DNA of 55,787 nt, counting the filler, from Jimgerdemannia flammicorona (Eukaryota), in the NCBI GenBank assembly GCA_003990765.1. It is 3 parts of 3 records of this genome, joined end to end, with 100 filler letters (N's around TTAATTAATTAA, not from the genome) between each part and the next. Parts side by side here need not be neighbours in the genome. Positions count along the whole stretch, not along the records: positions 1 to 18,535 come from RBNJ01002188.1; 2 more parts are not named here. One strand, written 5' to 3'. The notes beneath the pieces were generated by a model. That model was not told where the DNA came from and searched no databases. It worked only from the letters and a program-made list of their open reading frames with translations. Made by a program: the position numbers and the translations under genes. Below, in pieces: positions 1 through 49,349 of this stretch; within the stretch, counting starts at the first letter, position 1, and each line of letters begins with the position of its first letter.

Positions 1-132
1 AGAGTTGTGGTGCGGGAGGATGGGGTGTCATTGGCAGGCACTATGGTGAGGGGGGGTCCTTGTGGGATAGGTTGAGGGTTCGGGATGTATTATTCTTACT
101 ATAGACACGTTAATAAAGGGAGTCCAAGTGAC

Positions 133-164
<32 letters not shown>
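1..164 (+). mobile_element. 3' end of an L1/Tx1-like LINE (AATAAA, terminal hairpin, polyA) inserted into the RT of gypsy copy A1
   Basis: AATAAA at 112-117, AGTC-CAAGT-GACT at 121-133 and an A-run at 136-164. The same terminal motif ends the LINEs at 11415-11461 and 20955-20990. Gypsy RT (MPFG) resumes at 165. Confidence 0.8.
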
Positions 165-168
<4 letters not shown>

Positions 169-560
169 AAAGGGCATTCAGAGGTATTCAAACAGTTTTC
201 CTAGAGCAAGGAAGGCTGTCTTTTGGATGTCCTTGGGGTCCATGGGGATCTCATGGAATCCTGCAAAGAGGTCCATACTGCTGAAGTATCTGGCATCTTG
301 TAACTAGTCCAGAAGGTCATCGATTCTGGGCAGAGGATAAGCATCCTTTTCAGTGACTGAGTTGAGTTTTCTGTAATCCACGCAGAGTCTCCATCCTCCT
401 TTCTTTTGTACAATAAGTATAGGGCTGGCCCAGGGGCTGGTAGAGGGTCGGATGACTCCATTGTCTAAGAGTTCTTGGATGTACTCCTTTTCAAATGTTT
501 CCAAGTGATGGGGTATTCTATAGGGTTTCTACTGGATGGTTGTTGCACTTCCTGTATTTA
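165..560 (-). pseudogene. Gypsy reverse transcriptase, N-terminal part (copy A1)
   Basis: [31 protein letters not shown]...[11 protein letters not shown] in ORF 304..504, followed by a premature stop. Confidence 0.95.
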
Positions 561-1107
561 TGCTTTGATGATATGATGGATTGTATGGCAGGTTGCCATA
601 ATCAGTAGTGAAGATATCTTGATATTTGTTGAGAAGTTCTACTAGTTGTTGCTGTTGTTGAGGTGTCAATTCTTCTCCAATGTTGGTGGAAGGCTTCACT
701 GTCTCCTGGGTCACAGAGTGGCCTTTCCTTTCTTCTGGGACCTTTTGCCATTTCCCAATAGGTTTAGTTCATAAACATCCCTATGAGTTCGGTTGAGAAA
801 AGGCACCAGATGTCCTATGATGGTTCCTTTTGGCAGGATGATGGTCTCCCAACTTTGGTTGGTTGCTTGGGAGTGTACTGGGTTCATCTTGTCAGGGAAT
901 GTGTGTCCCTCTATATCTAGGTGTGGAATATCTTCCTTAGGTTCAAAGAAAAGGTTTCTGGGGTCGGGTGGTGCAAAGATTTCGAAGGTAGTTTATCCTC
1001 CAGACTCCAGGATGAGATTCTTGTGCAGTCTGACTGGTTGCCAGTATACTTGCTGGGGAACATTCCTCTTGAGGTGGTTGACTTGAAGGAGATGTACCTC
1101 TTTCCTG

Positions 1108-1500
1108 TCTGAACTTCCAAATCCCTTGGCTTGTCTTGTTCCTTCAGTTAGTTCAGAGACTTCCTGTAAATGTGGGGTCTTGACCTTCATGAAGACTGCT
1201 TGGGCAATCTTCTGTCCTCTAATGATCTGGTGCCATTCTGTACTGCTGTTGTGTAGGATGACCTTGATTTCACCTATATATCCAGGGTCAATGGTTCCTC
1301 CTTCTACAGTTATCCCTTGTCTGGCAAGTCCAGACCTTGAGGTCAGTTCAATATAAGCTCCTTGAGGTGGCTGCATGGCTAATCCAGTTCTGACCATGAA
1401 GGTTTTTCCAGGCTTGATGGATTCATCCTCCAGGCTGTGAAGATCATATCCTATATCCTCTGAGTGGGCTTTGGTCGGGGGTTTGGCCTTGGGGTGCAGC
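1108..1500 (-). CDS. dUTPase domain of family A pol (uninterrupted in this copy, within ORF 993..1739)
   Basis: All five trimeric dUTPase motifs: DIGYDL, SRSGL, GTIDPGYIGEI, KIAQAV, RQAKGFGSS. Confidence 0.93.
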
Positions 1501-2849
1501 AGGGCATACTGGGCAATGTCCTTGCTGAGTTCAGGCTTTCCTAAGGCTGAAGCTCCACTAGCAGAAAGCCTCCATGCTCTAAGGTTGAGGTGTGGCCATC
1601 TGGCTCCAGTAGAGGGGTATAGGAGGTAATTGATTCCCCTCCTTCCTGTAGGGTCAAGGGCTTCCATAAAGTTGGTAGCATCTTCTGCCCATCCTTGGCG
1701 GGTTACATGTCTACTGAGAGCTAGGATGTCTTCTCCCAAATTGTAAATCTTGAGGATTCTTTTTCCAGGCCTCTTGGTCTGGCTTTTTCGAATCTGGCTT
1801 TTTCGGATCTGGCTTCAGTTATCTCCTTTCTTCAAGGTGTGCACTGCAACATCATGGCTGAGGTGAATCTTCTGGTGTCTGCAGTCTCAGCAATCAGGAT
1901 GTCTCCCATGGTTGCAATACCCCATTGCTCGGAAATGACGTTCCTGGCTATTTATCTCTTGTTGTCTTGGGAATCGGTATCCATCTTGATCATAGATTGG
2001 GGGAAGGGTAGACAAGGGGTATATTTCTGTTCGGGTAAAGAAGCCTTGTCCTCTAAATCGACTTTGTAACCTTGTGGTGACTTCCTGAAAGGTGGTAGAC
2101 TGTGCAGAGTAGTTGGGAGTTCTGGTCTCTGGGGTCTCTGTCTTTCTTGTTGGTCCAACAGATGATACTGATAGCAATAGTCTCGGGGAGAGTGGAAGAC
2201 CTTTTGATGTGGACACCTTCCTAGCCGGGAAGCTTTCTCTTGGTGGGTTTCTTTCTTGGGGATAATGGTGATGGTACTGGGTCCTTCCTCTGTATTCCAG
2301 GGGTCATTGTCTTCAGGTGGTGTCCAGCGAGAGTCATCTCAGGGAATGAGTTTGGGGACTTCTTCTTCATCAGATGCTTCTTGTTCAGGAACTTCTTGCT
2401 CAGAAGTTTCTTCTTCCTCAGATGATTCTTGACCCCAAATTGCTTATACTTCTACAGCTTCAGTTGCAGGTGTTTCTGGAATATGTCTGCATTTCTTCTT
2501 CTTTCTTCTGCATTCTGGGCAGGCTGTGCCAGGCGATTGCCTTGTTCCCATGATCTTGGATTGAGTGCTTTGGACACTTGTGTCTCTTGAGGCATGTGGG
2601 GCATCCTTTGGCTTCTCCTGCAATGGCTCCAATAGTGATGGGGATGGTGTTCTTAGCCCACACATTGTCTTCTGGTCTGTCATCCACCAGGTTAATTCGG
2701 GGATTCAGTCTGGGATCATTTCCATCTTCGGATTCTTCTTCTTCTTCAGTAGTAGATTCTTCACTGCTGGCATACTCTTCCTGAATAGTGACCTTCTTTT
2801 TCTTCTTCGATTGCTCATAGCTGGTCACCTTAACTCTGTACTTCTTGCC

Positions 2850-3185
2850 TCGGTAGTCAAACTTGAGTACTTGTTGGCCAATGTCAACAACTGCATTCAT
2901 CTCCTTCATCCAATTGGTGCCAAGAATCATGTCATAGATGACAGCTTCAGTGACAACAGCTTTGGGAATGGAGAACTGAATGTGTCCCAGGGAGATAGTG
3001 ATATTTCATACTTCTCCAAGGGGTTGAGTTCGGGCTCCATCTGCTACTATGATGCTGAGGTTGGATGGTCCATCAATGGGCCATTGGAGGGTGTCCAATA
3101 ATTGTTTGGCAATGACACAGACAGCTGCTCCTATATCAATGAGGATTTTCGCTTTTTGTCCTCCAATGTCTCCATGTAAGTAGGT
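2850..3185 (-). pseudogene. Retropepsin aspartic protease (copy A1)
   Basis: KILIDIGAAVC (DTG in copy A2), then IVADG and YDMILGTNWM. Confidence 0.9.
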
Positions 3186-3659
3186 GCTGATATGTCTTTC
3201 AGCTGCTTGAACTGGGATGGAAGCTGGTTCTTGCTGTGGGATTGGAACTCAGCCAGTGCTAGACCTGGTGGTTTTCAGCAATTTATTTCGGACTCCTGCT
3301 GGTGTCAGTTGCAGAAACTGCAGAAGAGGAACTTCCATCTTGGCTTCTTGAATCTTCTGCCAGGCTTCATTGTAAATGTCTCTAGGCATGGTCTTTGGGG
3401 TATACTTTTTCTTAGGCCTTGGAGCAACAGGTTCCTGTTCTTCTTGTTCCATTTCCTCATCTTCTGGTGGTAATTCATTTGTCTCAGGCACAAAAGGTGA
3501 GGGGGTTAGGGGAGATGTTTCAACTTGTTCCTCCTCATATTCTTCATCCTCTTCTTGAATGATTCTCCTGCTGATGTTCCTTGATGGTCTTCCCATAGGT
3601 CTCTTTCTTTTTTCTGCTGGATAGACTGTCTTTCGGGTGGTAACCTTGGTAGGATACAA

Positions 3660-5225
3660 GTCTAGGTTACTGTAGTCTTCACTGTTACTTGCTTCCTCAA
3701 AATCTTCAACAGGAGGGGCTTCAGTCTTCTTGTACTGAGTGTCATTCCTTCAGTTTGGTAGTTCTGAGTCCCTTCAGTCACTTCTTTTATTGTCACATTC
3801 AGTGGCATAGTGTCCGAATTGTCCAAAGTGGAAGCATTGGACTTGGGCTCTGTCTCGGGCAGGGTACCTTCTTTCTTCTTGCTGGTAATTTCTGTTATCT
3901 CTTGGTGGATAACCTTGGCTCCTCTGTGGTGGATACCCTCTGTTGTTTTGGTAGTCCCAATTTTCATGTATGGTGAGTTTTTCAATTTATCCAATCAATC
4001 GGTCTAACTTGGAGCTGAGGTCTTGAATTTCACTTCTGTCCTTCTTTCCTTCCTTGGCTGGTCTTCTTTCTTCAGACTTTTCTTGTCCTTGATGGAGTCC
4101 TTGCAGGGCTTTGACCAGGATATCTTCTTTATCTTTCTTTTTGTCATGGTCACTCCATGTAGTTCCTTGCCTGACATCAAAGAATTTTTGGGCTGCATCT
4201 ACTTGCTCTTCAGACCTTCTGATGCCTAGGGTGCGGACATGCTGGGCAATATTCAGAGGAATTCCATTCATGAAGATCATTGGGCCTATGATGTCTTGGT
4301 TGGTGGCATTGAACCCAGCAGAATGCTTTCTCTTCTGGATTCTTGTGAAGAAGGCTCTGGGTGATTCTCCAAGATTTATCTTCATTCCTATGATGGATCC
4401 CTGAGCCTTGTGGTGGGTTTCATTTCCTGCATACTTTTCAATGAGCCAGTGGACCATGGCTTCATATTCTAGCTCATCAGAGAATGCTGCTTGTATCTGT
4501 CTTGCTAGTTCCAAATCTGGGTTGTTTGCTGTTCAGTGGAAAATTGCTCTAGCTGGTTCTCTAAGCTGGGCTTTGTAGATGGCGATTTTTCTTTTGTCTG
4601 AGAGGTTCCTCAAGGCTGCAATTCCTTCAATTCCATCAAGGAATTCTCTGGGGTCTTCCTCCAGGTATCCTGCAAAGGTTGGCAATAAGGTAGCCATTTC
4701 ATTGTCACTTTCTTCTAATTCTGGTTCAGGTTCAGATTCTGATTCTAATTCACTTTCTGAACTGTCACTAGAGACAGGAGTGCTTGGGTATCTTGAAGAT
4801 GGTGTTCTGGTCCTTGGGTGAGGTGGAATAGGCCTAGGTATCCTTGTGGGAGCTACTTCTGGTTCTGCAAGAGGTTGTGCTAGGGGTTCTATTGGTGAGA
4901 TTGGTGGGACAGGTGTATGCTGTCTGGCTGTAAGATGTTGGGTCCAGGTAATAAGTTCGTCTAGTTCTTGTGCAAGTTCTCCAAAAACTCTAGCAGGGCT
5001 GTCTATATTGTCTGGTTGATCTGGTTGATCTGGTTGGGGATTTCGGGCTGTACTGTCTGCTACTTCTGGTTGGGATCCTTCTGATGCTGGGTAGTTGGCA
5101 AGTCTTGAGATAATTACTTCTCTTCCTGTCCAAATGCTAGTAATCACTGGTTCTCCTGTAGTGGCAGAGGTTGGTATTGTATCAAATGTATCCAGTTTGA
5201 CTGTGGGTTCTTGTGAGCTGAAAAG
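3660..5225 (-). pseudogene. Gag of family A with a long Pro/Ser/Glu-rich N-terminal extension and a CCHC knuckle
   Basis: Capsid-like start LPTFAGYLEEDPREFLDG in ORF 4533..5147, continuing in ORF 3987..4514. Knuckle CFH(F/C)GQFGHYATEC near 3795-3840. Confidence 0.85.
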
Positions 5226-5244
5226 TCATATCGATTTTAAAATC

Positions 5245-5262
5245 TTCCCAGTTGAGCCCCCA
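5245..5262 (-). promoter_or_regulatory. Primer binding site, tRNA-Pro type (copy A1)
   Basis: TGGGGGCTCAACTGGGAA 2 nt after the LTR end. It resembles the known tRNA-Pro PBS TGGGGGCTCGTCCGGGAT, with differences mostly at CpG positions. Confidence 0.8.
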
Positions 5263-5264
5263 AA

Positions 5265-6860
5265 TGTAATGTGCCAGCTCAATGAAGGCAAATTACAAGG
5301 TTGGGGGGTTGATGTAGTTGGGCTTGAGCCCCCAGTTACTTTGTCAAAAAGCAACAAAATGTTCTAAGATTCCTGAGGTCCTTGGTGTTTAGTGGTATAA
5401 TAGTCAAAGCTGGATATCTGCGAGCAATTTCCTTATTGGGACAGTTCTCTGGGTGTAGTGGTGGTTTATGTGAACGGGTTTCCTTCTTGGGTCAACTGGG
5501 AATGGCAGAATTTATGTATAGCGTGAGCGGTTTCCTTCTTGAGTAGTGGATGATTTCTGTGTAGCGCAACGATCTCCTTGTATGTGATGGTCTAGAAATT
5601 TAGCAGTTCTCCTTATACGATTTCTGCGTGACAATCTTGATACAGCAATCTCTGTGTAGCACGATGGGTTCCTTATGTGGATGTTCTGATAATCCAGCAG
5701 ATAACTCAATTTGGCTCACTGGGAATATATGGCATAGATTCTTCTTCTGGGAATAATAGCTCAGATGGTGCGGATAATTCAAATACCTGAGAATAATGCT
5801 GGTGGCGGATTCTTCTCGGGCTCACTGGGAATGCAGATAACTTGGGAATAGTGGATGATGTGGATTCTTCCTGAATCAGTGGACATCTTGAAAATGGCAG
5901 CTTAACTGGGAATTAACTCGGGTGGCATGGATTCTTCTAAATTGGCGGATTCAACTGGGAATACAATGGCGCAGATCCTTTCTGAATCGGTGGCTTCAAC
6001 TGGGAATGTGGATAACTCAAAAACAGTAGATGACATGGATTCTTCCTGAATCGGCGGGGTTCTTATGGGAAACGGGATGGCGGCTTGGAAAGGGTCTCTT
6101 GGCAAAGTTGCATCAAAGACTGGCTTCGTTTGCGCAAATGGATCACTGCAAAGTTGTGTCAGAAACTGGCTTGGGCAAGGCAGCTTTCTCTGGGTGGCAT
6201 AAAAAGTGGAAAAGGCAGAAATCTTCAGGCTTATCTGGCAAGCGAACCAATAATAAGAATTCTCAAAGGCAGCGAAGTTCTCCTTGAACTTAGGTGGCAA
6301 ATCTTCAGGCTTATCTGGCAAGCGAACCAATAGTTCCAAAGGTAGCAAAGTTCTTCCTCGAACTTGGTGGCAAAATCAGCTTTGTATCGGAAAGTGGGCC
6401 AGAGTGGGAATAAGGGGACCAATTGCTCAATCTTTAGAGGCTTCTTTGGTTTGCACTTCAATTTGGAGTGAGGTTTTATTCACTCTCGCCTCTGGGGTAA
6501 TTTATACAAGTTGGTTGCTATCTGGTTACTATGTGGCTAACTATAGATTTGTTATCTTTGGTAATATTTGGGTGTGTCCTCTGGGTACAGGTGTGTCTAC
6601 AGGACATGAGTGTATCTGCAGGACATGAGTGTGTCTGCAGGACATGAGTGTGTCTGCAGGACATGAGTGTGTCCACATGACATGAGTGTGTCTTCAGGAC
6701 ATAGGTAAACAATCCTGATCTGGTGTCTTGGCTAATTATAAGTGTGGCAGTCATGAGTAACTATGATACACTGGAAGTCATGTCATGCTGAGTAAGTATA
6801 CTAATTGTTCACATCATCTGGCTAAGTTATAATTCAAGTGGTACGTTTTGGTCTGTTACA
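5265..6860 (-). repeat. 5' LTR of copy A1 (1596 bp)
   Basis: Sense strand reads TGTAAC...TTACA. Both ends align with the 3' LTR at 44890-46782. Confidence 0.92.
6590..6702. repeat. 19-bp tandem repeat (~5.5 units) in the LTR U3 region
   Basis: AGGACATGAGTGTGTCTGC units. Confidence 0.9.
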
Positions 6861-7441: not shown

Positions 7442-7568
7442 CCACTCTTATTTGGGCTATCTTTGGGCAGTTGTTTCAGATATAATTATCCTATCACTAT
7501 GGAATTTTTCTCTATTATTCTTATCAATATACTCTATCAATTCCAATCTTTAAAATATTTTAAAATCA

Positions 7569-8592
7569 ATGAGAAGGCTCTCAATTGATATTTGTAACTG
7601 CATAATCAATGCACTATATTCTGGCATATCCATACACAAGGTTTCCAAGGAGACAGGTGTTAGTTATAGATTGGTAGAACAAATAAGGAAGGAGGATTGT
7701 ACTGATATTGCCATTGAACCAAAAAACAGCTGGCTGCATGCACTTATCACTTGCGACTCATCATGGATGGTTTGCCAAATCACCTCTGGCAAGGCCAAAA
7801 CTGTCTTCAAGGTCACCAAACTGATGGAAGAAGTTGGGAAAACCGTCAGTACCAAGACCATATATAGAACACTGAAAAAATTGAGCATGAAAGCCTTTGT
7901 TAAGCAAAAAAAACCTAGATTGCTCATATACCATAAGAAGGCTCAGTATGAATTTACCCAAAAATACAAGGATTGAACAGTTAATGATTGGAAACATGTC
8001 ATTTTCTTGGATGAGACCAAGATCAACCACTTTGGCTCTGATGTATGCCTATGGGTATAGAAGAAATCCAGACCCAGTACACCACTTGAAGACCACTACA
8101 TAACTGGTACTGTTAAATTCAGAGGTAGTTTGGTGATGATATTTGAGCTATATATCATTTACCGGTATTGGATATGCATACAAAATAGATGGTAGAATGG
8201 ATGGCGAACTCTACAAAAGTATCCTTGATGATGAATTGAAGAAATCCATCAAATATTTTAAGATGCAGCCAAAAAAAAATTTATTTCAGCAAGATAACGA
8301 TTCAAAGCATATATCTGGTTTGACGTAGAAATGGTTCAAAAGCCATTTGATCCACTTGTTAGACTGGCCAGCATAATTGCCTGACCTGAATCCTATAGAA
8401 CATCTGTTGTGGTATATCAAAAGAAGGCTCAACACATATGAGGAAGCACTGAAGGGAATGTAGGTGCTTTGGGAGCAGATGAAAGAAGAGTGGAATGAGG
8501 TTCCTGATAATGTTTGTACTGGATTGGTAGAGAGCAGGCCAAGACATATTGCAGCAGTATTCAAAGCCAAGGGTGGTTATGTAAAATATTAA
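7569..8592 (+). pseudogene. Tc1 transposase, DD34E, with premature stops and frameshifts
   Basis: HTH-like N-terminus, KKPRL linker, VIFLDETKIN, FQQDNDSKH-(34 aa)-PDLNPIEH, and C-terminal KGGYVKY*. Confidence 0.93.
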
Positions 8593-11414: not shown

Positions 11415-12860
11415 TTTTTTTTTTTTTTTTTTTTTTTAGTCCCTTGGACTCCATCTTTATTACCAGTCTATAAATAAGTATACAATATCACCACCCACTA
11501 TCCAATCCCCACTGGGGGGCCCCTCTCCACCTCTTCACATATAAAGACCACCTCTCACCAACTACTCCAACTCTCCCACCACTCTGATCACAGATTTTCA
11601 CCACCAAGCAGTGCCTCTGACCCCCCTGCAGCCCCCAACCAAGCCACCAGCCTGTCAAGGTATCCTCCATAAGGCACTGCCACCATGATAACCTACTTCC
11701 CAAGCTCTGTCACCTCTCCTCCTTAAATACAAATAGCCAGTGACTGGCCAGCCCAACCCAAATAGCCAATGCTCAGCCTAGAGTAATCCACTCCTCCTCT
11801 ACCCCTTCTATCAATCGATCCCTCAGGTCCTCCCACCTCCCCCATATCTCATCACCCCTACACCTTACCCCCAAGCAGTCCCCAATGGTCTGCCAAAAGT
11901 CTCTCAACACCTCACACTCCCCTAGCCAATGTTCTGGTGTCTGTACAAATCCCCCTTTCTGCCCTACATTATGGCACTCCTCGCAGTCAAAGCAGCCCCC
12001 TGCAACAAGGTGTCCTGAGCAGAAGTTGAGCATCACATTCCTCCTCAGCACGTGCCACCAGACCACCCAGTACTTTGGCGGCATCTAATTTTTTACTGTG
12101 GCACTCCAGGTCCAAACCCCATGCCAGTCCCACTCCTCACCAATTCTGACTCCTTGCCATCCACTAGGCCACAGATCCTGGCCCAGTCCCCTTTGGCATT
12201 CAATTCTATCACCAATGTCGAACTCAAGTAAAGGCATGCCTCCCAGCAGAATGTCATCCCATCTCCACATCACCGGGCCCCAAGCCCTCTCCCCCTCATC
12301 CCCTCGCCAGCAAATACCAATATAGTGTGCTCCCTCGGCTATCCCCCACCAGAAGCCTTTATATCTCAGTTGTACAGTGTTCTGAAGTCCAACTAATGAA
12401 AGAAGATCACCAGTCAAGCCTCTTAGTGATATCCGCTGCTCCCATACCTTCTGCAGCAGGGGAACCCAGCCCCCACCCCGCAGCTCCACCGCCCTCCTAA
12501 GCCACCATGCCCTCAAGCAGTGTAGTCTTTTGGAGAAGTCCACCAGTCCAAGACCACCTCTCACCACTGGTAGGGACAAAGTCTCCCAGCCAATCTGACT
12601 CCATCTGCCAGCCCAAATCCATCCCTTAGCCACCTTCACCAATCTCTTCACCACCCAGGCTGGGAAGTTCAGATGATAAGCCAAGTACCACATCTTCGGC
12701 AGCCAGTATATATTCAAAATCAAGATCCTTCCTGCCAGAGAGAAGTGTCTTCCCCCCCAATCCCGCAGGTCCTCCTCCCAAATTCCAATCCTCTGCTCCC
12801 ACCACAGCCTGGGCAGAACAGACCCATAGACTGACAAATAGATGCCCAAGTACCACACTG
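11415..12860 (-). mobile_element. 3' part of an L1/Tx1-like LINE ORF2 with polyA, interrupted at its 5' side by gypsy B
   Basis: T-run 11415-11437 and terminal hairpin 11438-11450. ORF motifs YLGI, SLAGRILILN, RGGLGL, and a C-terminal Cys/His knuckle (CFDCEEC...TPEHWLGEC). Confidence 0.9.
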
Positions 12861-13745
12861 TGTAATAGAATGAAAGAATGACGAACAGATGGGAGCAATG
12901 AACGATGAATGACGAACGACGAACGACGAACGATGAACAACAAATGACAAACAACAAATGATGAACGACAAATGATCATGTGACCCGGCGATGACATCAT
13001 CATATGAACGAAGCATAACATATGAATTATGAATGACGAATGATGTGAACGATGTGAAACAATACAGAAAACGATATCCAGCTTATCCCCAACAATCAGT
13101 ACCACAGCAACAGTTGCCACAGCAGCTGATCATTGCCTAGTAATTGAGGTCCTGATTACAAAGTTGTTTTTGCCAAAAACCACCTAACAAAGATCATGAT
13201 CACAAACCTCATTATAGTTACCAAATTAGTCACTCATACTTAGTCAGAAATCGTGGACCAACTTGTATAAATACCCCCCAGTTTCCATCCGAAATAAAGC
13301 AGTTTTAGTTCAGTCCTTGATACAAGAATCAAGGCCCCCCCACACACACATTTCCCTGAGTCTTAGTAATGACATCTAAGTGACTCTAGTGTTTCTGACT
13401 AAACTCCAAAAGCCTAGCTAACTTCTGCCAGAACTGAGACTGGTATATAAATCTCCCAAAGACTTAAGTAAACCCATTAAACCTGAATTCCAAGGCGAAT
13501 TCAGTCTGTACACAGCAAATAACAAGACCCTTGAAATAGGGTACAAGAGAAAGACCTTTGAAACAGAAGGCAAACCAAAGAAAGACTTTTGAAAGATAAG
13601 GCACTACTGCTACACTTACTTATAAGTGAGTGCTTCCTCAAACTGAAGGCTTCTTGGTACACATTGTGTACTAAGTCCCTAAGTAATAGTCCACTTCCCT
13701 AATTATCCAAAGGATAAGAGAGGGATAGAAGTGAGAGTTATTACA
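12861..13745 (+). repeat. 5' LTR of gypsy B (885 bp)
   Basis: TGTAATA...TATTACA 7-bp inverted ends, immediately followed by a PBS. Confidence 0.85.
12878..13055. repeat. Degenerate 7-bp (GACGAAC/GATGAAC) tandem repeat in the gypsy B LTR
   Basis: gacgaacgacgaacgacgaacgatgaac... Confidence 0.85.
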
Positions 13746-13846: not shown

Positions 13847-15620
13847 GTGGATCCTCAAACCAGAGCCAGAGAAGCCCTTGCCATTAGGACCAGGTGGTAC
13901 CAGGAAACTACAGACCCAAGGACTCACCAGCTCATAATTGACCAGGCTTATAAGGATCTATACCAGGCCTTTAGGACATACCACCCAGGACTTAGGAATA
14001 TTGCTAGCTGCCTTAGATTCTATGAGCTCCTCTGAGGACACATTGGAACCACTAGGACTCCAGAATCTACTGCTGCAGCCACCCAGGATTTTTTAGATTA
14101 TATTACACCCCCTGCTGCAAGAGAAGCAGCTGCCGAGTGGATTGCCTCTGACAGATATCATCATACACCAACCAAGACCTCCCTCTATTACAGGCTAGTT
14201 GTATACTATGCCTCTGCCATAACTAGGTATGAGAACGAGCAAGCAGGCCATCCATCCCCTACTGCTGAACAAGGAGCAGGCCCATCAACCCAGCCAGAGA
14301 CTAATATCCTCTTTGAAGGACCTAGTCAGTACGAGGATGCACTATCTCATCAGGGAAGGGAGTCAGATGAAGAATCTACAGGTCACCAGTCTGACAATAG
14401 CCAACTAGGAACAGCAGGCCTAGGAATTTACCAAGGAACCACAGGTCAAGAAGATCAGACCCCAGAACCAATACAGCCACCTATACAGAGATTTGGTTTA
14501 CCCTCTCTCACAGGACTCTTTGACTTAATATCTAGGAACCAAGTAACCCCAAGTCATACAGCACCACAACTCCACCAAGTAGAACAATCTTCAGGAGAAC
14601 CTACCCCAACAGGCCCACCACCAATAGTCAGTACAATGGTAGATGTCAACATTGCAGCACTGACCACTCAGCTAGCAGCACTAGCAGGGATAGTAGGACA
14701 GATTGCTGAACAGAACAAACCAACCAAGACTTTGCGAATCCCAACATTCAGTGGAAAAAACAGTGATATCGAAAACTTCATCAATGCAGTTGATACAGGC
14801 TACCGAGCAAACCAATGGAATGACAACCAAGTACCTATAGGAATGCTCACCAACAACCAGAACAGCACCCTTCAACAGCTGTTTGCCACATCAGCAGCAC
14901 AAGTAGAAACAGTAGCCACATTCTTCACTAGAACAGCAGCTGAATTCTGGCGAACCTTGGAACAATACCCAGTAACCTGGAAAGCCCACCCTCAAGTCAA
15001 TGGACAAGCACCTGGCAACAATAGATCAGGTTGGGATGACTATAAAGCAGGCCCAGGACTCAAGGCCTTGCTACTGACCAAATTCCGAAATGCAGCCTAT
15101 ATATAAGAAACATAGAACAAACTGTCTCAGATGAAGTTCCACAAGAATGGCAAAGAGGATCTAGAGACCTTTGCTACCAGAATGGATGCCTATCTCAAAA
15201 CTGTTAGACTTATCTATCAGGAAAACAATTTGGCCATCAATGGTACCAGAGCCAACCATCTCTTTGCAGCCCTACCAGACTGGCTCACTCAGAAGATCAA
15301 GGAACAAGGTCTTCCGCAAGGATGCCCCCACTACTCATGGTGCTTTGCCCAAGTACAAAGAAAAGCCCGTGAAATCCTTGCTGCACAAGCTCCACGATAT
15401 CAAGAACATAAGAAAGATACCCAAGACAGGAGAAATCCTACCAGGAGAAATGATCAAAGGAATGACCAAAGATATGATCAAAGATATGATCAAAGGAACC
15501 AGTGAAACCCCAGAGGACCCAGACCTCCCACTGAGGATAAGAAGAAGCAGCTCTGTGAAAAAGGATTGTGCTTCATCTGCAAGAAGGCAGGACAGATATC
15601 AGTCAAATGCCCTGAGAAGA
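13847..15620 (+). pseudogene. Gag of gypsy B with a long N-terminal extension and a degenerate CCHC knuckle
   Basis: IPTFSGKNSDIENFI capsid-like start in ORF 14636..15106. CFICKKAGQISVKCP at ~15568-15612. ORF 13847..14035 is in the same frame as 14636. Confidence 0.8.
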
Positions 15621-15699
15621 GAAACAGATCAGGCAAACCCAGTAACCAGAACATTACTGTTATTGGAGAAGGTCCAGGAAAGAAAAACCCCGAGAATGT

Positions 15700-16112
15700 C
15701 ATCAAAGTATAGAAGATATGGTACAAGACTACCATCTCCACTAAGGCCCACTCAACTGATGCTGGATATGACCTCTACAGTAGCCAAGACCTCACCATCC
15801 CACCAAGTACCAATGCTACAGTGTGAACAGGAATTGCAATGCAAGCCTCCAGAGGTACATACATCCGCCTTGCTGAGTGACGCAGCCTAGCCAAAGAGTT
15901 CAACATTGGGCTAGAAGGAGGAGTAGTTGACCAAGGATTTACTGGTGAAATCCATGTCATCTTGCAAAATTTTGGAGACACATCATTTGAAGTCAAAGCA
16001 GGCCAAAGAATTGCCCAAGCAATCATTGAAGAAATCTATCAAGATCTCACCATTGAAGAAGTCCCCGAACTCTTCCAGACAGATCATGGCAAGAAAGGGT
16101 TTGGATCTACCA
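15700..16112 (+). pseudogene. dUTPase of gypsy B, located upstream of the protease
   Basis: PTKAHSTDAGYDL, GGVVDQGFTGEI, RIAQAII and GKKGFGST, with stops. Confidence 0.9.
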
Positions 16113-16439
16113 ACAAACCTCCCAGTCAAAAGGTCACTACCATGAAGGAAGATGATGAAAACTGGTACAAGAGAATTACAGATAGTTATGCACTATGTGG
16201 ACGATGCCCTCATTCCATTCGAATGTACTGCATGGAATATGTTGGTGAATACCATGCATGCCTCTCCAAAGTTTTCAAAATTCAATCTGAAAAGCACCAA
16301 GCTCAACAGACTGAGGAATTCAAACAAGACAACCCTCCTTGTGAAGGATGGGGAGAAACTGACTTCGAGGAGACTGATAGCAATTGGGACAACAATGAGG
16401 ATGAAGAGCTCAATATTATTAAGAAGGAGGATAGTTGCA

Positions 16440-16790
16440 TCAAGTTCACAGGCCAAGTCTACAGACAAAATGTCAATATCTTGCTTGATAGTGGTGCTAC
16501 TGGAAACTATATTAGCACCAAGACTGCCAAGAGGATTGGAGCCTAAAGCAGACCAACTACTGAGAAAAGAAGTGTTACCTTTGGTGATAGAAAGACTGCA
16601 CCATTGACCAAGATCTGTGAAGACCTTTTGCTCAAGATTGGCAAATATCAAGAGAAGTTGGACTTCAGCATTGTAGACCTCCCAGGACAAGACATTATCT
16701 TAGGAAAAGCCTGGTTGACCCAGCACAACCCAGACATCAACTGGAGAACCAATGAGGTCAACCTGACCCACGAAGGCAGAAAGATCACCC
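16440..16790 (+). pseudogene. Aspartic protease of gypsy B
   Basis: ILLDSGATGNYIS and DIILGKAWLTQHNPDINW. Confidence 0.92.
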
Positions 16791-17039
16791 TGATACCCCA
16801 GGAAGGCACCAACCACCAAGGAATCAAAATCATCTCTGCCATTCAAATGAAGAGACTCTCTCGAAAAAAGGGAAACACCTACTTTATCTGTACAGTACAA
16901 GAAGTCACTAAAGCCACAAGTAGCCCAATTCCAACAGAAGCTTAAGAACTGTTTGAAGAATTCCAAGATGTATTCCAAGATCCTCAAGGACTTCCACCCA
17001 AATGCCAAATCCAACATGGAATTGATCTTTTCCCAGAAT

Positions 17040-18285
17040 CTGAACCCCCATACAAGAGTATCTACCAACTGGCCCAACCTGAGCTCAAGACCCTCAAGGA
17101 TGAGTTGACCAAACTACTGGCCCAAGGATACATTGAACCCAGCTGCTCTCCATTTGGAGCCCCCATTCTATTTGTCAAGAAGAAGGATGGCTCTCTGCGA
17201 ATGTGTATTGACTACAGAGCCCTCAACAAGATCACTATTAAGAATCAGTATGCCTTGCCCAGGATTGATGAGTTGCTACATCAAATCTTCAAGGCCAAGA
17301 CCTTTTCTCTACTGGATTTGTGAAATGGCTACCACCAGATTCTCATTGATGAGAAGGACATTGAGAAGACAGCTTTCCGAACACGGTTTGGACACTACTA
17401 GTTCTGAGTCATGCCTTTTGGATTGACCAATGCACCAGCAACATTCTAGTATCTGATGAATGACATCTTTGGACCACTCCTCAACATCTGTGTCCTTGTG
17501 TATATTGATAATATACTAATTAACAGCGAGACAGTAGAGCTACACTATACCCACCTTAGACAAGTACTGACCCTTCTGCGAGAACACCAGCTCTATGCCA
17601 AGATGAGCAAGTGTAAGTTCTACTAAGACCAGATCGAGTACTTAGGACATATCATCTCTGCTGAAGGTATCAATGTGGACCCGCAAAAAGTATCAGCCCT
17701 TAAGAATATCCCTATCCCTACTACCCTCAAGCTACTCCAGTGCTTTCTGGGTATTGCCAGTTATTACCGAAGGTTTATCCAAGGATACTCTGCTATTGCA
17801 GCCCCATTGACCAGCCTGGCCCATAAAGGAGTAAACATCAAAGCTGAATGGACCCCCGAATGCACTCTGACTATGGACCATCTCGAGAGACTCCTTACCA
17901 AGGCCCCAGTGCTAATTGTACCTAATCCTACCAGACCATTCACTCTGACCACAGATGCCTCTGATATTGCTATTGGAGCAGTACTCAGTCAAGAAGACTA
18001 CCCAGTGGCCTACCTCTCCCAAAAGCTCAAACCAGCTGAGACCCGGTATACCACCAATGAGAAGAAACTCCTGGCTATTGTCACTGTACTCCAGGAATGG
18101 CACCATTTCCTCCTAGGACAGCCATTTGTGGCCTACACTGATCACTATGCAATGCGGTATTTTCACACACAGCCCATGCTGACCCATAGACAAGCCTGCT
18201 GGATGGAAATCATTGCCAACTTTGATATGGAAATCAAGTATATCCCAGGCAAAACCAACTGTGTGGCTGATGGTTTCACCAGGTA
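17040..18285 (+). pseudogene. RT and RNase H of gypsy B
   Basis: [40 protein letters not shown] (from YIDD), TDASDIAIGAVL, YTDH, PGKTNCVADG. Confidence 0.95.
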
Positions 18286-18510
18286 CATGGAAGACAAACT
18301 TGTCTTCATGGTTGAAGTAATTGGAGACCTTACCTAAATGATCAAAGATGGCTACCAACAAGACAGCCCCCTGATGAATTTTCTTCAATTCTGCCAAGAC
18401 CCAGAGGCCGAGGTTCCAGAACCCATGAGGCAAATGGCCAAGAGATTCACCTATCATAATGGACTTATCTATAGGGACCATGACAGAGTGGTTGTACTCA
18501 ACAATGATAC

Positions 18511-18535: not shown

Positions 18536-18635
18536 NNNNNNNNNNNNNNNNNNNNNNNNNNNNNNNNNNNNNNNNNNNNTTAATTAATTAANNNNNNNNN
18601 NNNNNNNNNNNNNNNNNNNNNNNNNNNNNNNNNNN
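18536..18635. other. Artificial contig spacer
   Basis: 44 N + TTAATTAATTAA (stops in all six frames) + 44 N = 100 bp. Confidence 0.97.
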
Positions 18636-37163: not shown

Positions 37164-37263
37164 NNNNNNNNNNNNNNNNNNNNNNNNNNNNNNNNNNNNN
37201 NNNNNNNTTAATTAATTAANNNNNNNNNNNNNNNNNNNNNNNNNNNNNNNNNNNNNNNNNNNN
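37164..37263. other. Artificial contig spacer
   Basis: 44 N + TTAATTAATTAA + 44 N. Confidence 0.97.

Positions 37264-37298
<35 letters not shown>
37264..37298 (+). other. PolyA, probably a LINE tail inserted into the 5' LTR of copy A2; contig start
   Basis: A 35-nt A-run directly abuts LTR U5 sequence. Confidence 0.6.
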
Positions 37299-37300
<2 letters not shown>

Positions 37301-37439
37301 AACTCAGAAATCTTAGAACATTTTGTTGCTTTTTGATAAAGTAACTGGGGGCTCAAGCCAAACTATATCAACCCCCAACCTTGTAATTTACCTCCATTGA
37401 GCCAGGTATGTTACATTTGGGGGCTCAACTAGGAATATT

Positions 37440-39000
37440 TCAAATTAACATGACTTTTCAGCTCACAAGAACCCACAGTCAAACTGGATATATTTGATAC
37501 AATACCAACCTCTGCCACTACAGGAGAACCAGTTATCACCAGTATCTGGACAGGAAAAGAAGTAATCACATCAAGACTTGCCAACTACCCAGCATCAGAA
37601 GGATCCCAACCAAAAGGCAGTACAGCCTGAAATCCTCAACCAGATCAACCAGACAATATAGGTAGCCCTGCTAGAGATTTCAAAGAACTTGCACAAGAAC
37701 TAGAAGATCTTATCACATGAACCTGAGACCTTACAGCCAGATGTCCCATACCAGCCCCACCAATCTCACCAATAGAACCTTTACCACAACCCCTTGCAGA
37801 GTTGGAAGTAGCTTCTACAAGAATACCTAGACTTATTCCACTTTATCCAAGGTCCAGAACACCATCCTTAAGATACCCAAGCACTCTCATCTCCAGTGAT
37901 AGCTCAGAAAGTGAATCAGAATCAGAATCTGAACCCAAACCAGAATCAGAAGAAAGTGATGAAGAAATGGCCACCTCACTGCCAACCTTTGCAGGATACC
38001 TGGAGGAAGACTCCAGAGAGTTTCTTGATGGAATTGAAGGAATCGCAGCCTTGAGAAATCTCTCAGATAAAAGAAAAATCGACATCTACAAGGCTCAGCT
38101 CAGAGAACCAGCCAGAGGACTTTTCCATTGAACAGCAAACAACCCAGATTCAGAACTGGCAAGACAGATACAAGCAGCAATGTCCTATGAGCTACAATAT
38201 GAGGCCATGGTCCACTGACTCATTGAAAAGTATGCAGGAAATGAAACCTGCCACAAGGCCCAGGAATCCATCATGGGGATGATGATGAATCTTGGAGAAT
38301 CACCCAGAGCCTTCTTCACAAGAATCCAGAAGAGAATGCATACTGTCAGGTTCAATGCCACCAACAAGGACATCATTGGTCCAATGACCTTCATGAAAGG
38401 AATTCCCCCAAACATTGCCCAGCATATTCACATCCTTGGCATCAGAAGGTCCAAAGAGCAAGTAGATGCAGCCCAAGGATTCTTTGATATCAGACAAGGA
38501 ACTACCTGGAGTGATCATGACAGAAAAGAAGATAAAGAAGATATCCTGATCAAAGCCCTACAAGGACTCCTTCAAGGACAAGAAAGATCTGAAGAAAGAA
38601 GGCCAGCCAAGGAAGGAAAGAAGGACAGAAGTAAAATCCAAGACCTCAGCTCCAAGTTGGACTAATTGGTCAGACAGATTGAAAACCTCACTATATGCAA
38701 AAACCAGAGCTACCAAGACAATAGAGGATACTTACCACAGAGGAGCCAAGGTTATCCACCCAGAGATAACAGGAGTTATCAGCAGGAAGAGAGAAGATAT
38801 CCTGTCCAAGACAGAGCTCAGGTCTAATGCTTCCACTGTGGATAATTCAGACACTATGTAACCGAATGTGACAACAAAAGAAGTAACCAAGGAGACTCAG
38901 AATCATCAAACTGAAGGAGTGACACTCAGTACAAGAAGACTGAAGCCCATCCTGTTGAAGATTTTGAGGAAACAAGTGACAGTGAAGATTACAGTGACCT
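37440..39000 (+). pseudogene. Gag (copy A2)
   Basis: ORFs 37802..38131 and 38273..38665 are homologous to A1 gag. Knuckle remnant near 38828-38870. Confidence 0.85.
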
Positions 39001-39469
39001 AGATCTGTACTCTACCAAGATTACTACCTGAAAAACAGTCTACCCAGTAGAAAAGAGAAAGATACCTATAGGAAAGCCATCCAGGAACATCAGTAGAAGA
39101 ATCATCCAAGAAGATGAGGAACATAAAGAGGAGCAGGTAGAAATACCTCCCCGAACCCCCTCACCTTTTGTCTCTAAGACAAATGAGCTACCACTAGAAA
39201 ATGAAGAGATGGAACAAGAAGATTAGGAACCTGCTGCCCCAAAGCCCAAAAAGAAGTGTACCCTGAAGACCATGCCCAGAGACATCTACAATGAAGCTTG
39301 GCAGAAGATTCAAGAAGCCAAGATGGAAGTCCCTCTCCTACTTCCTACAACTGACACCAGCCAGGGTTCAAAACAAATTATTAAGAACAACTAGGTATAG
39401 CACTGGCCAGGTCCCAATCCCACAGTAAGAACTAGCTCCCATATAGCTAAAAGACAAGTCAGCACCTAT

Positions 39470-42400
39470 CTACATGGAGATATCAGAGGACAAAAGGCAA
39501 AGATCCTCATAGATACAGGAGCAGCTGTCTGTATCATTGCCAAATAGTTCTTGGACACCCTCCAATGGCCCATTGATGGACCATCCAACCTCAGCATCAT
39601 AGTAGCAGATGGAGCCCGAACCCAACCCCTTGGAGAAGTACAAAACATCACCATCTTCCTTGGACACATTCAGTTCTCTATTCCCAAAGCTGTTGTCACA
39701 GAAGCTGTCACCTATGACATAATTCTTGGCACCAACTGGTTGAAGGAAATGAATGCAGTCATTGATATTGGCCAACAAGTACTCAAGTTTGACTACTGAG
39801 GCAAGAAGTACAGAGTCAAGGTGACTAGCTATGAGCAATTAAAGAAGAAGAAGAAGGTCACTATTCAGGAAGAATATGCCAGTAGTGAGGAGTCTACTAC
39901 AGAAGAGAAAGCAGAAACTGAAGATGGAAATGATCCCAGACTCAATCCCCAAATTACCTGATAGATGACAGAACAGAGGACAATGTTTGGGCCAAGAACA
40001 CCATCCCTATCACTATTGGAGCTATTGTGGGAGAAGCCAAAGGATGCCCTATCTGTCTCAAGAGATACAAGTGTCCCAAGCATTTCTCCAAAATCATGGG
40101 AACAAGGAAATCATCTGGCACAGCCTGCCCAGAATGCAGAAAGAAGAAGAAGAAATGCAGACATATTCCAGAAATACCTGCAACTGAAGCTGCAGAAGTA
40201 TAAGCAATTTGGGGTCAAGAATTATCTGAGGAAGAAGAAACCTCTGACCAAGAAGTTCCTGAACAAGAAGTACCTAAAGAAGAAGAGGTCCCTGAACTCA
40301 TCTCCTGGGATGATTCTCGCTGGATACTACCTGAAGACAATGACCCTTGGAATACAGAAGAAGGACTCAGTATAATTATCATTATCCCCAAGAAAGAAAC
40401 TCACTAAGAAAAAGCCTTTCAGCTAGGAAGATGTCCACACCAAATGGTCTTCTACTCTCCCCAAGACTACTGCTATCAGTGCCATTTATTAGACTAACAG
40501 AAGAGACAGAGACCCCAGAGACCAGAGCCCCTGAACACACTTATACAGTCAACTACTTTCCAAGAAGTTACAACCAAGTTGTAAAGCCAATTTAGAGGAC
40601 AAGGCTTCTTCACCCAGACAGAAATATATCCCTTATCAACTCTTCTACCCACCTATGACCAAGATGGGTACTGATTCCCAAGACAACAAGAGATCAATAA
40701 CCAGGAACATCATTTCCAAGCAATGGGATATTGCAACCATAGAAGACATCCTGACTGCTGAGACTGCAGACATCAGAAGATTCATCTCAGTCATGATGTT
40801 GCAATCCATACCTTGAAGAGAGGAGATAACTGAAGCCAGATACAAAAAAGCCAGATCAAAAAGTCAGAAAGAAGGATCCTCAAGATCTACAATCTAGGAG
40901 AAGCCATCCTTGCTCTCATCAGACATGTAACCATCAAGGATGGGCAGAAGATGCCACCAACTTGAAATAAGCCCTTGACCCTACAGAAAAAAGGGGAATC
41001 AACTATCTCCAAGACCCCTCTACTGGAGCCAGATGGCCACACCTCAACCTTAGAGCCTGGAGGCTCTCTGCTAGTAGAGCTTCAGCCTTAGAAAAGCCCA
41101 AACTCAGCAAGAATATTGCCCAGTATGCCCTACTGCACCCCAAGGCTAAACCCCCAACCAAAGCCCACCCAGAGGATGTAGGATATGATCTTCACAATCT
41201 GGAGGATGAATCTATCAAGTCTGGAAAAACCTTCATGATCAGAACTGGATTAGCCATGCAGCCACCCCAATAATCTTATATCGAATTGACCTCAAGGTCT
41301 GGACTTACCAGACAAGGAAGAATGGTAGAAGGAGGAACCATTGACCCAGGATATATGGGCAAAATCAAGGTTATCTTACAAAACAGCAGTGCAGAATGGC
41401 ACTGAATCATTAGAGGACAGAAGATTGCCCAAGCAGTCTTCATGAAGATCAAGACCCCACAGTTACAAGAAGTCTCTGAACTAACTGAAGGAACAAGACA
41501 AGCCAAGAGATTTGGAAGCTCAGACAGGAAGGAAGTACATCTCCTTCAAGTCAACCACCTCAAGAGGAGTGTTCCCCAGCAAGTGTACCAGCAACCAGTT
41601 AGACTGCACAAGAATCTTATTCTGGAGCCTGGAAAACAAACAACCTTCGAAATCTTTACACCACCCGACCCCAGAAACCTTTTCTTTGAACCCAAGGAAG
41701 ATATCCCCCACCTGGACATAGAGAGACATACATTCTCTAACAAGATGAACCCAGTACACTCCCAAGCAACCAACCAAAGTTGGGAAACTGTCATCTTGCT
41801 AAACCTATTGGGAAACAGCAAAAGGTCCCAGAAGAAAGGAAAGGCCCTTCTGCGACCTAGGAGACAGTGAAGCCTTCCACCAACATTGGAGAAGAATTGA
41901 CACCTCAACAACAACAACTAGTAGAACTTCTCAACAAATATCAAGATATCTTCACTACTGATTATGGCAACCTGCCATACAATCTATCATATCACCACAG
42001 CATAAATATAGAAAATACAACACCCATCCAGCAGAAATCCTATAGAATACCCCATCACTTGAAATCATTTGAAAAGGAGCACATCTAAGAACTCTTAGAC
42101 AATGGAGTCATTCAACCCTCTACCAGCCCTTGGGCTAGCCCCATACTTATTGTACCAAAGAAAGGAGGATGGAGACTCTGTGTAGATTACAGGAAACTCA
42201 ATTCAGTCACTGAAAAGGATGCCTATTCTTTGCCCAGAATCGATGACCTTTTGGATCAGTTACAAGATGCCAGATACTTCAGCAGTATGGACCTCTTCAC
42301 AGGATTCCATGAAATCCCCGTGGACCCAAAAGACATTCAAAATACAGCCTTCCTTGCTCTAGGAAAACTGTTTGAATATCTCCAAATGCTCTTTGGACTT

Positions 42401-49330: not shown

Positions 49331-49349
49331 TTTGGGGGCTCAACTGGGA

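Follow-up and report, generated by a model that had tools for sequence, protein, structure and literature searches.

The stretch of Jimgerdemannia flammicorona DNA analysed here (55,787 nucleotides, filler included; assembly GCA_003990765.1; hereafter the window) holds three decayed copies, A1, A2 and A3, of a Ty3/gypsy retrotransposon, family A, in which a region of ~435 codons lies between the aspartic protease (PR) and the dUTPase. This region, termed X below, forms a real coding segment of the first open reading frame (ORF1) of the element and was maintained by selection. A1 runs on the (-) strand from ~5400 down to 1, where it is truncated by the start of the window, and blastn places A2 and A3 on the (+) strand from ~37297 and ~49195, respectively; A1 and A3 run past the window ends. 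With the reverse complement of window 1-5400 as the A1 query, blastn aligned A1 with A2 (37297-41803) at 86.3% over 4557 columns and then at 91.6% over 606, and with A3 (49195-54398) at 87.1% over 5242 columns. Column-by-column translation of the three-copy DNA alignment showed that protease, X and dUTPase follow one another in a single frame in all three copies, with X at 1524-2831 (-) in A1, 39818-41108 (+) in A2 and 51755-53036 (+) in A3. A preliminary description of this DNA had reported a long insert between protease and dUTPase in every copy, and both the insert and its placement agree with the boundaries mapped here.

No copy of X is intact. In its true frame there are four stops in A1, eight in A2 and ten in A3, and over the protease-dUTPase stretch each of the three copies carries two frame-breaking indels, which in A1 are a +1 indel at 2561/2562 and a -1 indel near 2105-2109. 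Since the stop columns in X mostly hold CGA, CAA, CAG or TGG in the other copies, and since CpG observed/expected is 0.04-0.16 across the copies (0.04 in A2 and A3) and 0.12 across the whole window, the decay is attributed to methylation-type C-to-T change. Extreme CpG depletion, together with an excess of TpG and CpA, is also a property of the window as a whole. One column of X (residue 508 of the three-copy alignment, ..KKGDN*SQI..; A1 1815-1817, (-)) reads TGA in all three copies. There are 30 columns that hold CGA, TGA, CAA or TAA only, two of which are TGA throughout: that of X, codon 1162 of the gag-pol alignment, and a second in gag, at codon 256. Because an equivalent column occurs in gag, the shared TGA of X is read as recurrent CGA decay, and a true stop with read-through at this codon, though conceivable, was set aside.

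The ratio of nonsynonymous to synonymous substitution (dN/dS), calculated by the Nei-Gojobori method (NG86) and pooled over the three copy pairs, is 0.21 for X in its true frame (bootstrap 0.17-0.26), and so is not near 1, the value that the preliminary description had named as speaking against a functional insert. Elsewhere in family A the ratio is 0.20 for protease, 0.24 for gag, 0.32 for part of the reverse transcriptase (RT) and 0.35 for dUTPase; within X it is lowest, at 0.11, in the segment of the fourth Cys/His module described below, and exclusion of CpG-type differences leaves X as a whole at 0.19. Because the mutation spectrum is rich in transitions, the same DNA was also read, as a control, in its wrong frames, which gave 0.82 and 1.01 in the other two sense frames and 0.40-0.95 in antisense. 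Set against these wrong-frame values, the true-frame ratio indicates that most of the divergence between copies arose under purifying selection on the X protein.

X holds four Cys/His modules, M1-M4. The preliminary description had counted three, having overlooked the GRCxH...CxxC module (M3), and all of the motifs that it quoted were found: CPTCLKRHKCP(K/E)H, TACPECRRKKKKCRH, the EEVPE tract, FR.QGFFT...YDQDGYRFPRQQEIN, YCNH.RHPDCRDCRH and QGWAEDATNFMEALDPTGRRGINYL. M1, CPTCLKRHKCPKH in A1, lies at 2565-2603 (-), 40045-40083 (+) and 51983-52021 (+) in A1, A2 and A3, respectively, and M2, CPECRRKKKKCRH in A1, at 2483-2521 (-), 40126-40164 (+) and 52064-52102 (+). Together they follow the pattern C-x2-C-x5-C-x2-H-x14-C-x2-C-x6-C-x-H, with 17 residues separating the third Cys of M1 from the first of M2, and form a very basic segment with six Cys, two His and basic runs (RRKKKK). 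There follows an acidic, Trp-bearing tract (QAIWGQ...EEVP..LIPWDD..W..EDNDPWNTEEG; A1 2258-2440, (-)) that is predicted to be disordered, and then M3 (KETHQEKA..LGRCPHQKVFHSPRDYCYQ(C>Y)HLLD in A1), at 2153-2254 (-), 40393-40494 (+) and 52331-52432 (+), a conserved C-x-H...C-x2-C knuckle with the family sequence LGRCPHQ.VF(H/Y)SP.DYCYQCH and the best conserved of the four modules. M4 (family sequence YCNH.RHPDCRDCRH; YCNHGRHPDC(R>stop)DCRH in A1) occupies 1875-1919 (-), 40729-40773 (+) and 52667-52711 (+); its candidacy as a repeat of M3 was rejected (hidden Markov model (HMM) E 6, not significant). The C-terminal block of X (A1 1524-1775, (-)) consists of a helix, KRILKIYNLGEDILAL, followed by QGWAEDATNFMEALDPTGRRGINYL...WPHLNL, and runs into the dUTPase. 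Long K-rich and acidic low-complexity stretches also occur within X. Intact Cys codons fill 33 of 36 cells (12 positions in three copies) and intact His codons 24 of 27, and all six losses are single transitions to Tyr (C->Y or H->Y).

Sequences related to X are also found in public sequencing runs. When A1 900-3300 was compared with contigs from four such runs, three of them labelled soil metagenome, related contigs spanned 29-30 of 30 bins in each run; in one of them (X1), 866 contigs aligned, 131 of which were at least 99% alike. The insertion of one base in A1 at 2561/2562 and the deletion of one near 2105 are both absent from most of the related soil-metagenome contigs, and the two frameshifts are therefore private to A1, with M1 and M2 contiguous in the family.

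Another source of information is the set of proteins related to X. A profile confined to X, from which protease and dUTPase had been left out, was run against 1,835,955,588 representative proteins and matched six at E <= 1e-3 and none at E <= 1e-10; X is real and constrained, and is detected in a handful of sequences only. One of these, P0008 (1179 aa, from a Joint Genome Institute source and named 'dUTP pyrophosphatase'), is by Pfam a Gag(CCHC)-PR-X-dUTPase polyprotein. It is 27% identical to family A over the Trp-acidic tract (WDDP..W), M3 and M4 (pairwise E 2e-14) and 37% identical over the C-terminal block, dUTPase and tail (E 6e-49), with the C-terminal block conserved from NYLKAIDPVGLRGVNY on. 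M4 of family A aligns with GYCECG...NCFYC of P0008, which thus has C-x-C...C-x2-C where family A has C-x-H...C-x2-C. At the position of M1-M2, P0008 has no Cys at all, although the flanks align (..IG.IA.. before, acidic tract after). Four further matches, P0009-P0012, are short fragments with parts of WDD(P)..W..ETHxE.AF..G(R/W)CxHGxRF(Y/H)SP...CxxC. The C, H, C and C ligands of M3 are kept in all three outside sequences that cover it (P0008, P0010 and P0012), and the WDD..W motif of the acidic tract is common to family A and P0008-P0011. Conservation of the Cys/His residues had been set beforehand as a test of the insert, and the residues are indeed kept in the homologues that cover them.

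Because P0008 and the fragments share the core of X, and P0008 lacks M1-M2, X is best read as an older core with a younger, family-specific addition. The older core comprises a disordered Trp-acidic tract, the putative M3/M4 knuckles G-[RY]-C-x-[HC]-...-C-x2-C and a predicted helical block leading into the dUTPase; it is shared with a relative that is ~27-37% identical, and M1-M2 is present in family A and not in that relative. The bulk of X is an inherited, lineage-specific polyprotein region and not a new kind of element. In word-index searches, P0002 gave 1464 candidates among longer proteins, none at E <= 0.01, residues 520-890 of P0008 matched only P0008 itself (2138 candidates), and residues 190-262 of P0013, the sixth match, likewise matched only themselves (four candidates). 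Scans of metagenome contigs returned 95 pattern matches with the alignment as query and 363 with P0002, none of them confirmed, and the ESM Atlas gave no usable match to the P0008 insert.

P0013 (hypothetical protein BC936DRAFT_139739, partial [Jimgerdemannia flammicorona]) matches M1-M2 only, at 44% identity over 45 ungapped residues and a library-wide E of 9.6e-4. It keeps the six Cys of M1-M2 and the His after the third Cys, M1 being homologous to its residues ~202-214. Outside M1-M2 it is S/P-rich with three acidic repeats, and it has no Pfam match at E <= 1, hence no detected transposon domain.

The preliminary description had seen in one module half of a Zn2Cys6 cluster, a claim that reduces to a sub-threshold likeness. 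Zn_clus (PF00172) scores 15.4 bits (E 0.021) on the A1 piece, where M2 resembles the first half of the profile, and 18.3 bits (E 0.0026) on the corresponding part of P0013, where it is the top Pfam family; both fall under the gathering cut-off of 21 bits, and the matches cover profile positions 1-17 or 1-20 of 39. A Zn_clus row at E <= 10 was obtained for two of the three M1-M2 members scanned, and none at E <= 1 for P0001 and P0002. Set beside this Zn(II)2Cys6 domain, known from GAL4 and LAC9, M2 (A-C-x2-C-R-x2-K-x-K-C) aligns to ACDACRKKKWKC of LAC9 (E 4.1 in a PDB search with the M1-M2 profile), and M1 and M2 jointly offer six Cys. The canonical spacing, however, is C-x2-C-x6-C-x5-12-C-x2-C-x6-8-C, whereas that of M1-M2 is C-x2-C-x5-C-x17-C-x2-C-x6-C, which does not fit, and no Cys follows M2 in family A to supply a second half. 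The best row of the same PDB search was a CxxC...CxxC protein at E 0.083. In the ESM Atlas, the P0013 segment has Zn_clus clusters as neighbours, with scores of 0.76-0.78 which, being under 0.9, count as leads only. The likeness of M1-M2 to Zn2Cys6 thus appears to be a fair lead and not family membership, and its sequence would be compatible with either an atypically spaced six-Cys cluster or a two-knuckle zinc ribbon with extra ligands. Together with the Jimgerdemannia homologue and the soil-metagenome matches, the fungal-type Zn_clus likeness would point to a probably early-diverging soil fungus as host, perhaps in Mucoromycota.

AlphaFold2 (AF2) was run on two shallow alignments, of 10 and 8 rows, giving one model for P0002 and one for P0010. 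M3 folds confidently in both, a short helix being followed by a hairpin and another helix, with a block predicted local distance difference test (pLDDT) score of 82-95 over residues 141-180 of P0002 and 92-93 over residues 91-120 of P0010, and the helix ahead of the C-terminal block is modelled at a block pLDDT of 80-93. The acidic tract falls below 50 at residues 65-90 of P0002 and reaches 51-63 at residues 91-140; over half of the residues modelled for P0002 are under 60. For the rest of X, no Pfam, PDB or fold match accounts for it, M3 alone not having been fold-searched, and the single PDB row obtained with the X core profile (E 0.99) was discarded as a chance match. The statement that X matches no described domain therefore holds for Pfam and the PDB.

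ORF1 encodes Gag, PR, X, dUTPase and a tail in one single frame. Its gag part has a CCHC knuckle of its own, QCFHCGQFGHYATEC. The A1 protease (2835-3206, (-)) is recognized by its D(T/I)G motif, LIDIGAA in A1 and LIDTGAA in A2, its Pfam scores being sub-threshold, and the A1 dUTPase (1119-1523, (-)) is a member of PF00692 (E 7.8e-27, 94 bits against a cut-off of 22, profile positions 3-128 of 129), as is that of A3 at 91.3 bits. The tail that follows in A1, of ~135 residues (711-1118, (-)), ends at the ORF1 stop, TGA 711-713, and has its equivalents in A2 and A3. This tail (..PVRLHKNLILE.G.QTTFEI..PPDPRNLFFEP..ILPKGTIIGHLVPF..) is kept in P0008 and has no Pfam match; to the eye, its pattern recalls a possible second beta-barrel. 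Downstream in A2 are RVT_1 (E 3.6e-26), RT_RNaseH_2 (E 4e-26) and Integrase_H2C2 (E 2.5e-8), together with an integrase core, rve_3, at E 1e-4 and 22.4 bits, under its cut-off of 26.5. Family A has the Ty3/gypsy (Metaviridae) domain order Gag(CCHC)-PR-RT-RNase H-integrase.

In all three copies, RT, RNase H and integrase (ORF2) are in the -1 frame relative to ORF1, with an overlap of ~70 nt, and the frame-change regions lie at 691-756 (-) in A1, 41810-41875 (+) in A2 and 53804-53869 (+) in A3. An X XXY YYZ slippery heptamer stands in phase in two of the three copies, as GGGAAAT in A1 (750-756, (-)) and GGGAAAC in A2 (41810-41816, (+)), and has decayed to AGAAAAC in A3. For A2 and A3, the fold of lowest predicted energy is a hairpin 6 nt 3' of the heptamer. 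The C-terminus of P0008 falls where ORF1 ends. As X and dUTPase are in the Gag-Pro frame and RT is in the -1 frame, X and dUTPase would be made in Gag-like, not RT-like, amounts, with frameshifting itself inferred. X also lies upstream of the frame change into RT, and therefore belongs strictly to the Gag-PR ORF and not to gypsy pol, with which the preliminary description had compared it.

The outer limits of the elements are less complete. In A2, 37297-37415 and 46664-46782 are 95% alike over 119 bp and are candidate long terminal repeats (LTRs), the 5' repeat being interrupted by an N run; the flanks of A1 and A3 are homologous to the repeat-bearing flanks of A2, and both elements exceed the window. 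Two N patterns in the window, at 18536-18635 and 37164-37263, look identical (44 N, 12 bases, 44 N). The first interrupts an element of a second gypsy family, family B, and the other stands in place of most of the A2 5' LTR.

The chances are about even that X represents an accessory region particular to its lineage, with Cys/His modules that bind both zinc and nucleic acid, that it works with the dUTPase, and that it is a convergent counterpart of the betaretroviral nucleocapsid (NC)-dUTPase. M1-M4 would bind zinc and nucleic acid; X, lying directly N-terminal to the dUTPase and upstream of the -1 frameshift, would be produced at Gag level and packaged; and in the particle it would hold the dUTPase on RNA/cDNA, much as the betaretroviral nucleocapsid-dUTPase fusion does. 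The betaretroviral NC-dUTPase has its coding sequence ahead of the frameshift into pol and is made in excess over RT. M1-M4 of family A similarly precede the dUTPase in the same ORF, upstream of a -1 frame change. Unlike betaretroviruses, in which the dUTPase precedes PR, family A has the order PR-X-dUTPase, and whereas the betaretroviral knuckles are the CCHC knuckles of Gag NC, the CCHC of family A is far upstream in gag, with PR between it and the dUTPase, and the knuckles of X are of another, unclassified type. X and the betaretroviral NC-dUTPase have no sequence homology, and the comparison is one of functional analogy only. For Mason-Pfizer monkey virus, one report (PMC1802613) describes the NC-dUTPase fusion, p30, in the Pro frame.

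The comparison with the Gag CCHC knuckle itself (PF00098) is similarly mixed. Like that knuckle, M1-M4 are short Cys/His units within the polyprotein of a retroelement and plausibly bind nucleic acid. Unlike PF00098 (C-x2-C-x4-H-x4-C), M3 and M4 are spaced C-x-[HC]...C-x2-C, and X has no PF00098 match.

Several observations weigh against a nucleic-acid-binding partner of the dUTPase. All three copies in the window are dead, with no intact family-A copy among them, and the TGA common to all three lies inside X; it is taken here as a probable product of recurrent CGA decay. AF2 gives a pLDDT of less than 50 over most of M1-M2. With z of -0.26 to -0.56, the frameshift hairpin does not exceed shuffled sequence in stability, and A1 has lost it. 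Moreover, gag already has a CCHC knuckle, which leaves no obvious need for another nucleic-acid binder, and X may be cleaved off the dUTPase by the protease.

A tentative and rather unlikely alternative, which stands closest to the preliminary description, is that M1-M2 is a captured host domain of the zinc-cluster transcription-factor type, which would serve in nuclear import or would fasten the particle, a cleavage product or the pre-integration complex to specific DNA or chromatin. Consistent with capture, M1-M2 is missing from P0008 even though the flanking residues align there, and P0013, the sole outside homologue, combines the lack of a transposon domain with an activator-like composition of S/P-rich sequence and repeated acidic segments. 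Zn_clus is its top Pfam family at E 0.0026, its nearest named neighbours by ESM Atlas score (0.76-0.78) belong to Zn_clus clusters, and the basic runs (RRKKKK) of M1-M2 would suit such a role. Yet this is one homologue at a library-wide E of 9.6e-4, P0013 comes from an incomplete gene model, on a contig of 5.2 kb, and may itself be transposon-derived, transfer may have gone in either direction, the Atlas scores below 0.9 are leads, and the Zn_clus score is under its cut-off with half of the profile covered. In addition, known gypsy targeting modules sit on integrase and not ahead of the dUTPase. A captured host domain, as first proposed for the whole insert, thus has some support for M1-M2, which is absent from P0008 and present in a protein without a transposon domain, and not for the rest of X, which is an inherited polyprotein region. 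It is conceivable, if improbable, that both ideas hold together, such that X is a hitherto undescribed retroelement protein in which a zinc-knuckle domain, M3/M4, of a family that Pfam lacks, is permanently coupled to the dUTPase at Gag stoichiometry, with M1-M2, as a DNA-binding zinc cluster of six atypically spaced Cys, gained by exchange with a fungal transcription-factor lineage and tethering the particle or pre-integration complex to given sequences or to chromatin from outside integrase.

It is unlikely that X is a polyprotein spacer or a regulator of the protease, acting in dimerization timing or precursor folding and inactive after cleavage. The position of X directly after PR would suit such a part, as would its long K-rich and acidic low-complexity stretches and a P0002 model that is more than half under pLDDT 60. 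Selection on X, however, is as strong as that on the enzymes and is strongest (0.11) over the M4 segment, and a mere spacer would not need Cys/His residues and motifs that persist at 27% identity.

Very unlikely, too, is a protein-protein adaptor, in which the disordered Trp-acidic tract (WDD..W..D.W, WG) and the knuckles recruit a host factor, for instance a partner of the Argonaute 'W-hook' type or an adaptor in trafficking, and in which nucleic-acid binding would be beside the purpose. The tract is indeed predicted to be disordered, and its WDD(P/S)x(W/Y) and (D/E)(D/E)W elements are conserved, with WDD in four of the five outside sequences that cover it (P0010 has WDT) and the second W in all five; family B, moreover, shows a comparable acidic tract (GWG / NWD) next to its own dUTPase. 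The likeness, however, is one of motifs known from other systems, and an adaptor of this kind leaves the conserved Cys/His knuckles unexplained. Finally, that X is non-functional filler or an assembly artefact, as the stops and frameshifts in every copy and the N runs beside A2 might suggest, is extremely improbable given one frame in all three copies, a dN/dS of 0.21 against ~0.8-1.0 in the wrong sense frames, a distant polyprotein homologue and related contigs over 29-30 of 30 bins in all four public runs.

A dUTPase in a fungal gypsy element is not in itself novel. In the portion of Novikova et al. 2010 (PMC2864245) available here, fungal Ty3/gypsy elements with a dUTPase are described from Postia placenta (PosPlaTy3-5), Phanerochaete chrysosporium and Tuber melanosporum, and that of PosPlaTy3-5 is located between PR and RT, so that the 'undescribed system' of the preliminary description was overstated. 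Compared by description and not by sequence, these elements resemble family A in carrying a dUTPase; they differ in that a ~435-aa Cys/His region between PR and dUTPase goes unmentioned in that portion of the text. Leaving aside the element structures in Figure 3 and Additional file 1 of that paper, the literature searched yielded no account of a Cys/His region placed between PR and dUTPase. For Entomophthora, a preprint (bioRxiv 10.1101/2023.09.13.557621) reports that dUTPase is enriched together with retroelement domains.

The dUTPase and other extra enzymatic domains of LTR retrotransposons are known, and what accompanies them, and how they are retained in the replication complex, is rarely asked. 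X is a ~435-residue companion of the dUTPase that is constrained like the enzymes, has no family assignment and is encoded with Gag rather than with RT. If X proved to be a zinc-dependent nucleic-acid binder fused to the dUTPase, it would have arrived independently, by convergence, at the arrangement seen in the betaretroviral NC-dUTPase; if M1-M2 proved to have been exchanged with a host transcription factor, it would be a tangible example of DNA-binding domains passing between the genome of a fungus and its transposons. The gain in practice is a modest one, a new M3 profile for the annotation of such elements in large, transposon-rich fungal genomes.

The family B gypsy element of the window, at 14036-18337 (+), is arranged as gag (with a degraded CCHC), dUTPase (15734-16111), 'CGRCPHSIRMYC..HAC', an acidic GWG/NWD tract, protease and RT/RNase H. 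Its dUTPase is ahead of the protease, as in betaretroviruses. The family B sequence GRCPHSIRMY was considered as an M3 homologue and rejected (HMM independent E 0.096, score 1.1, not significant). Elsewhere, a ~140-aa ORF at 7554-7976 (+), in an island of 28-32% GC, may by its sequence correspond to the DNA-binding N-terminus of a transposase of the Tc1/mariner type, and a Trp-rich ORF of 296 aa at 12085-12975 (-) appears to resemble the C-terminal region of a non-LTR retrotransposon ORF2. Strong GC-skew blocks occur at 9-11 kb and 21-27 kb of the window.

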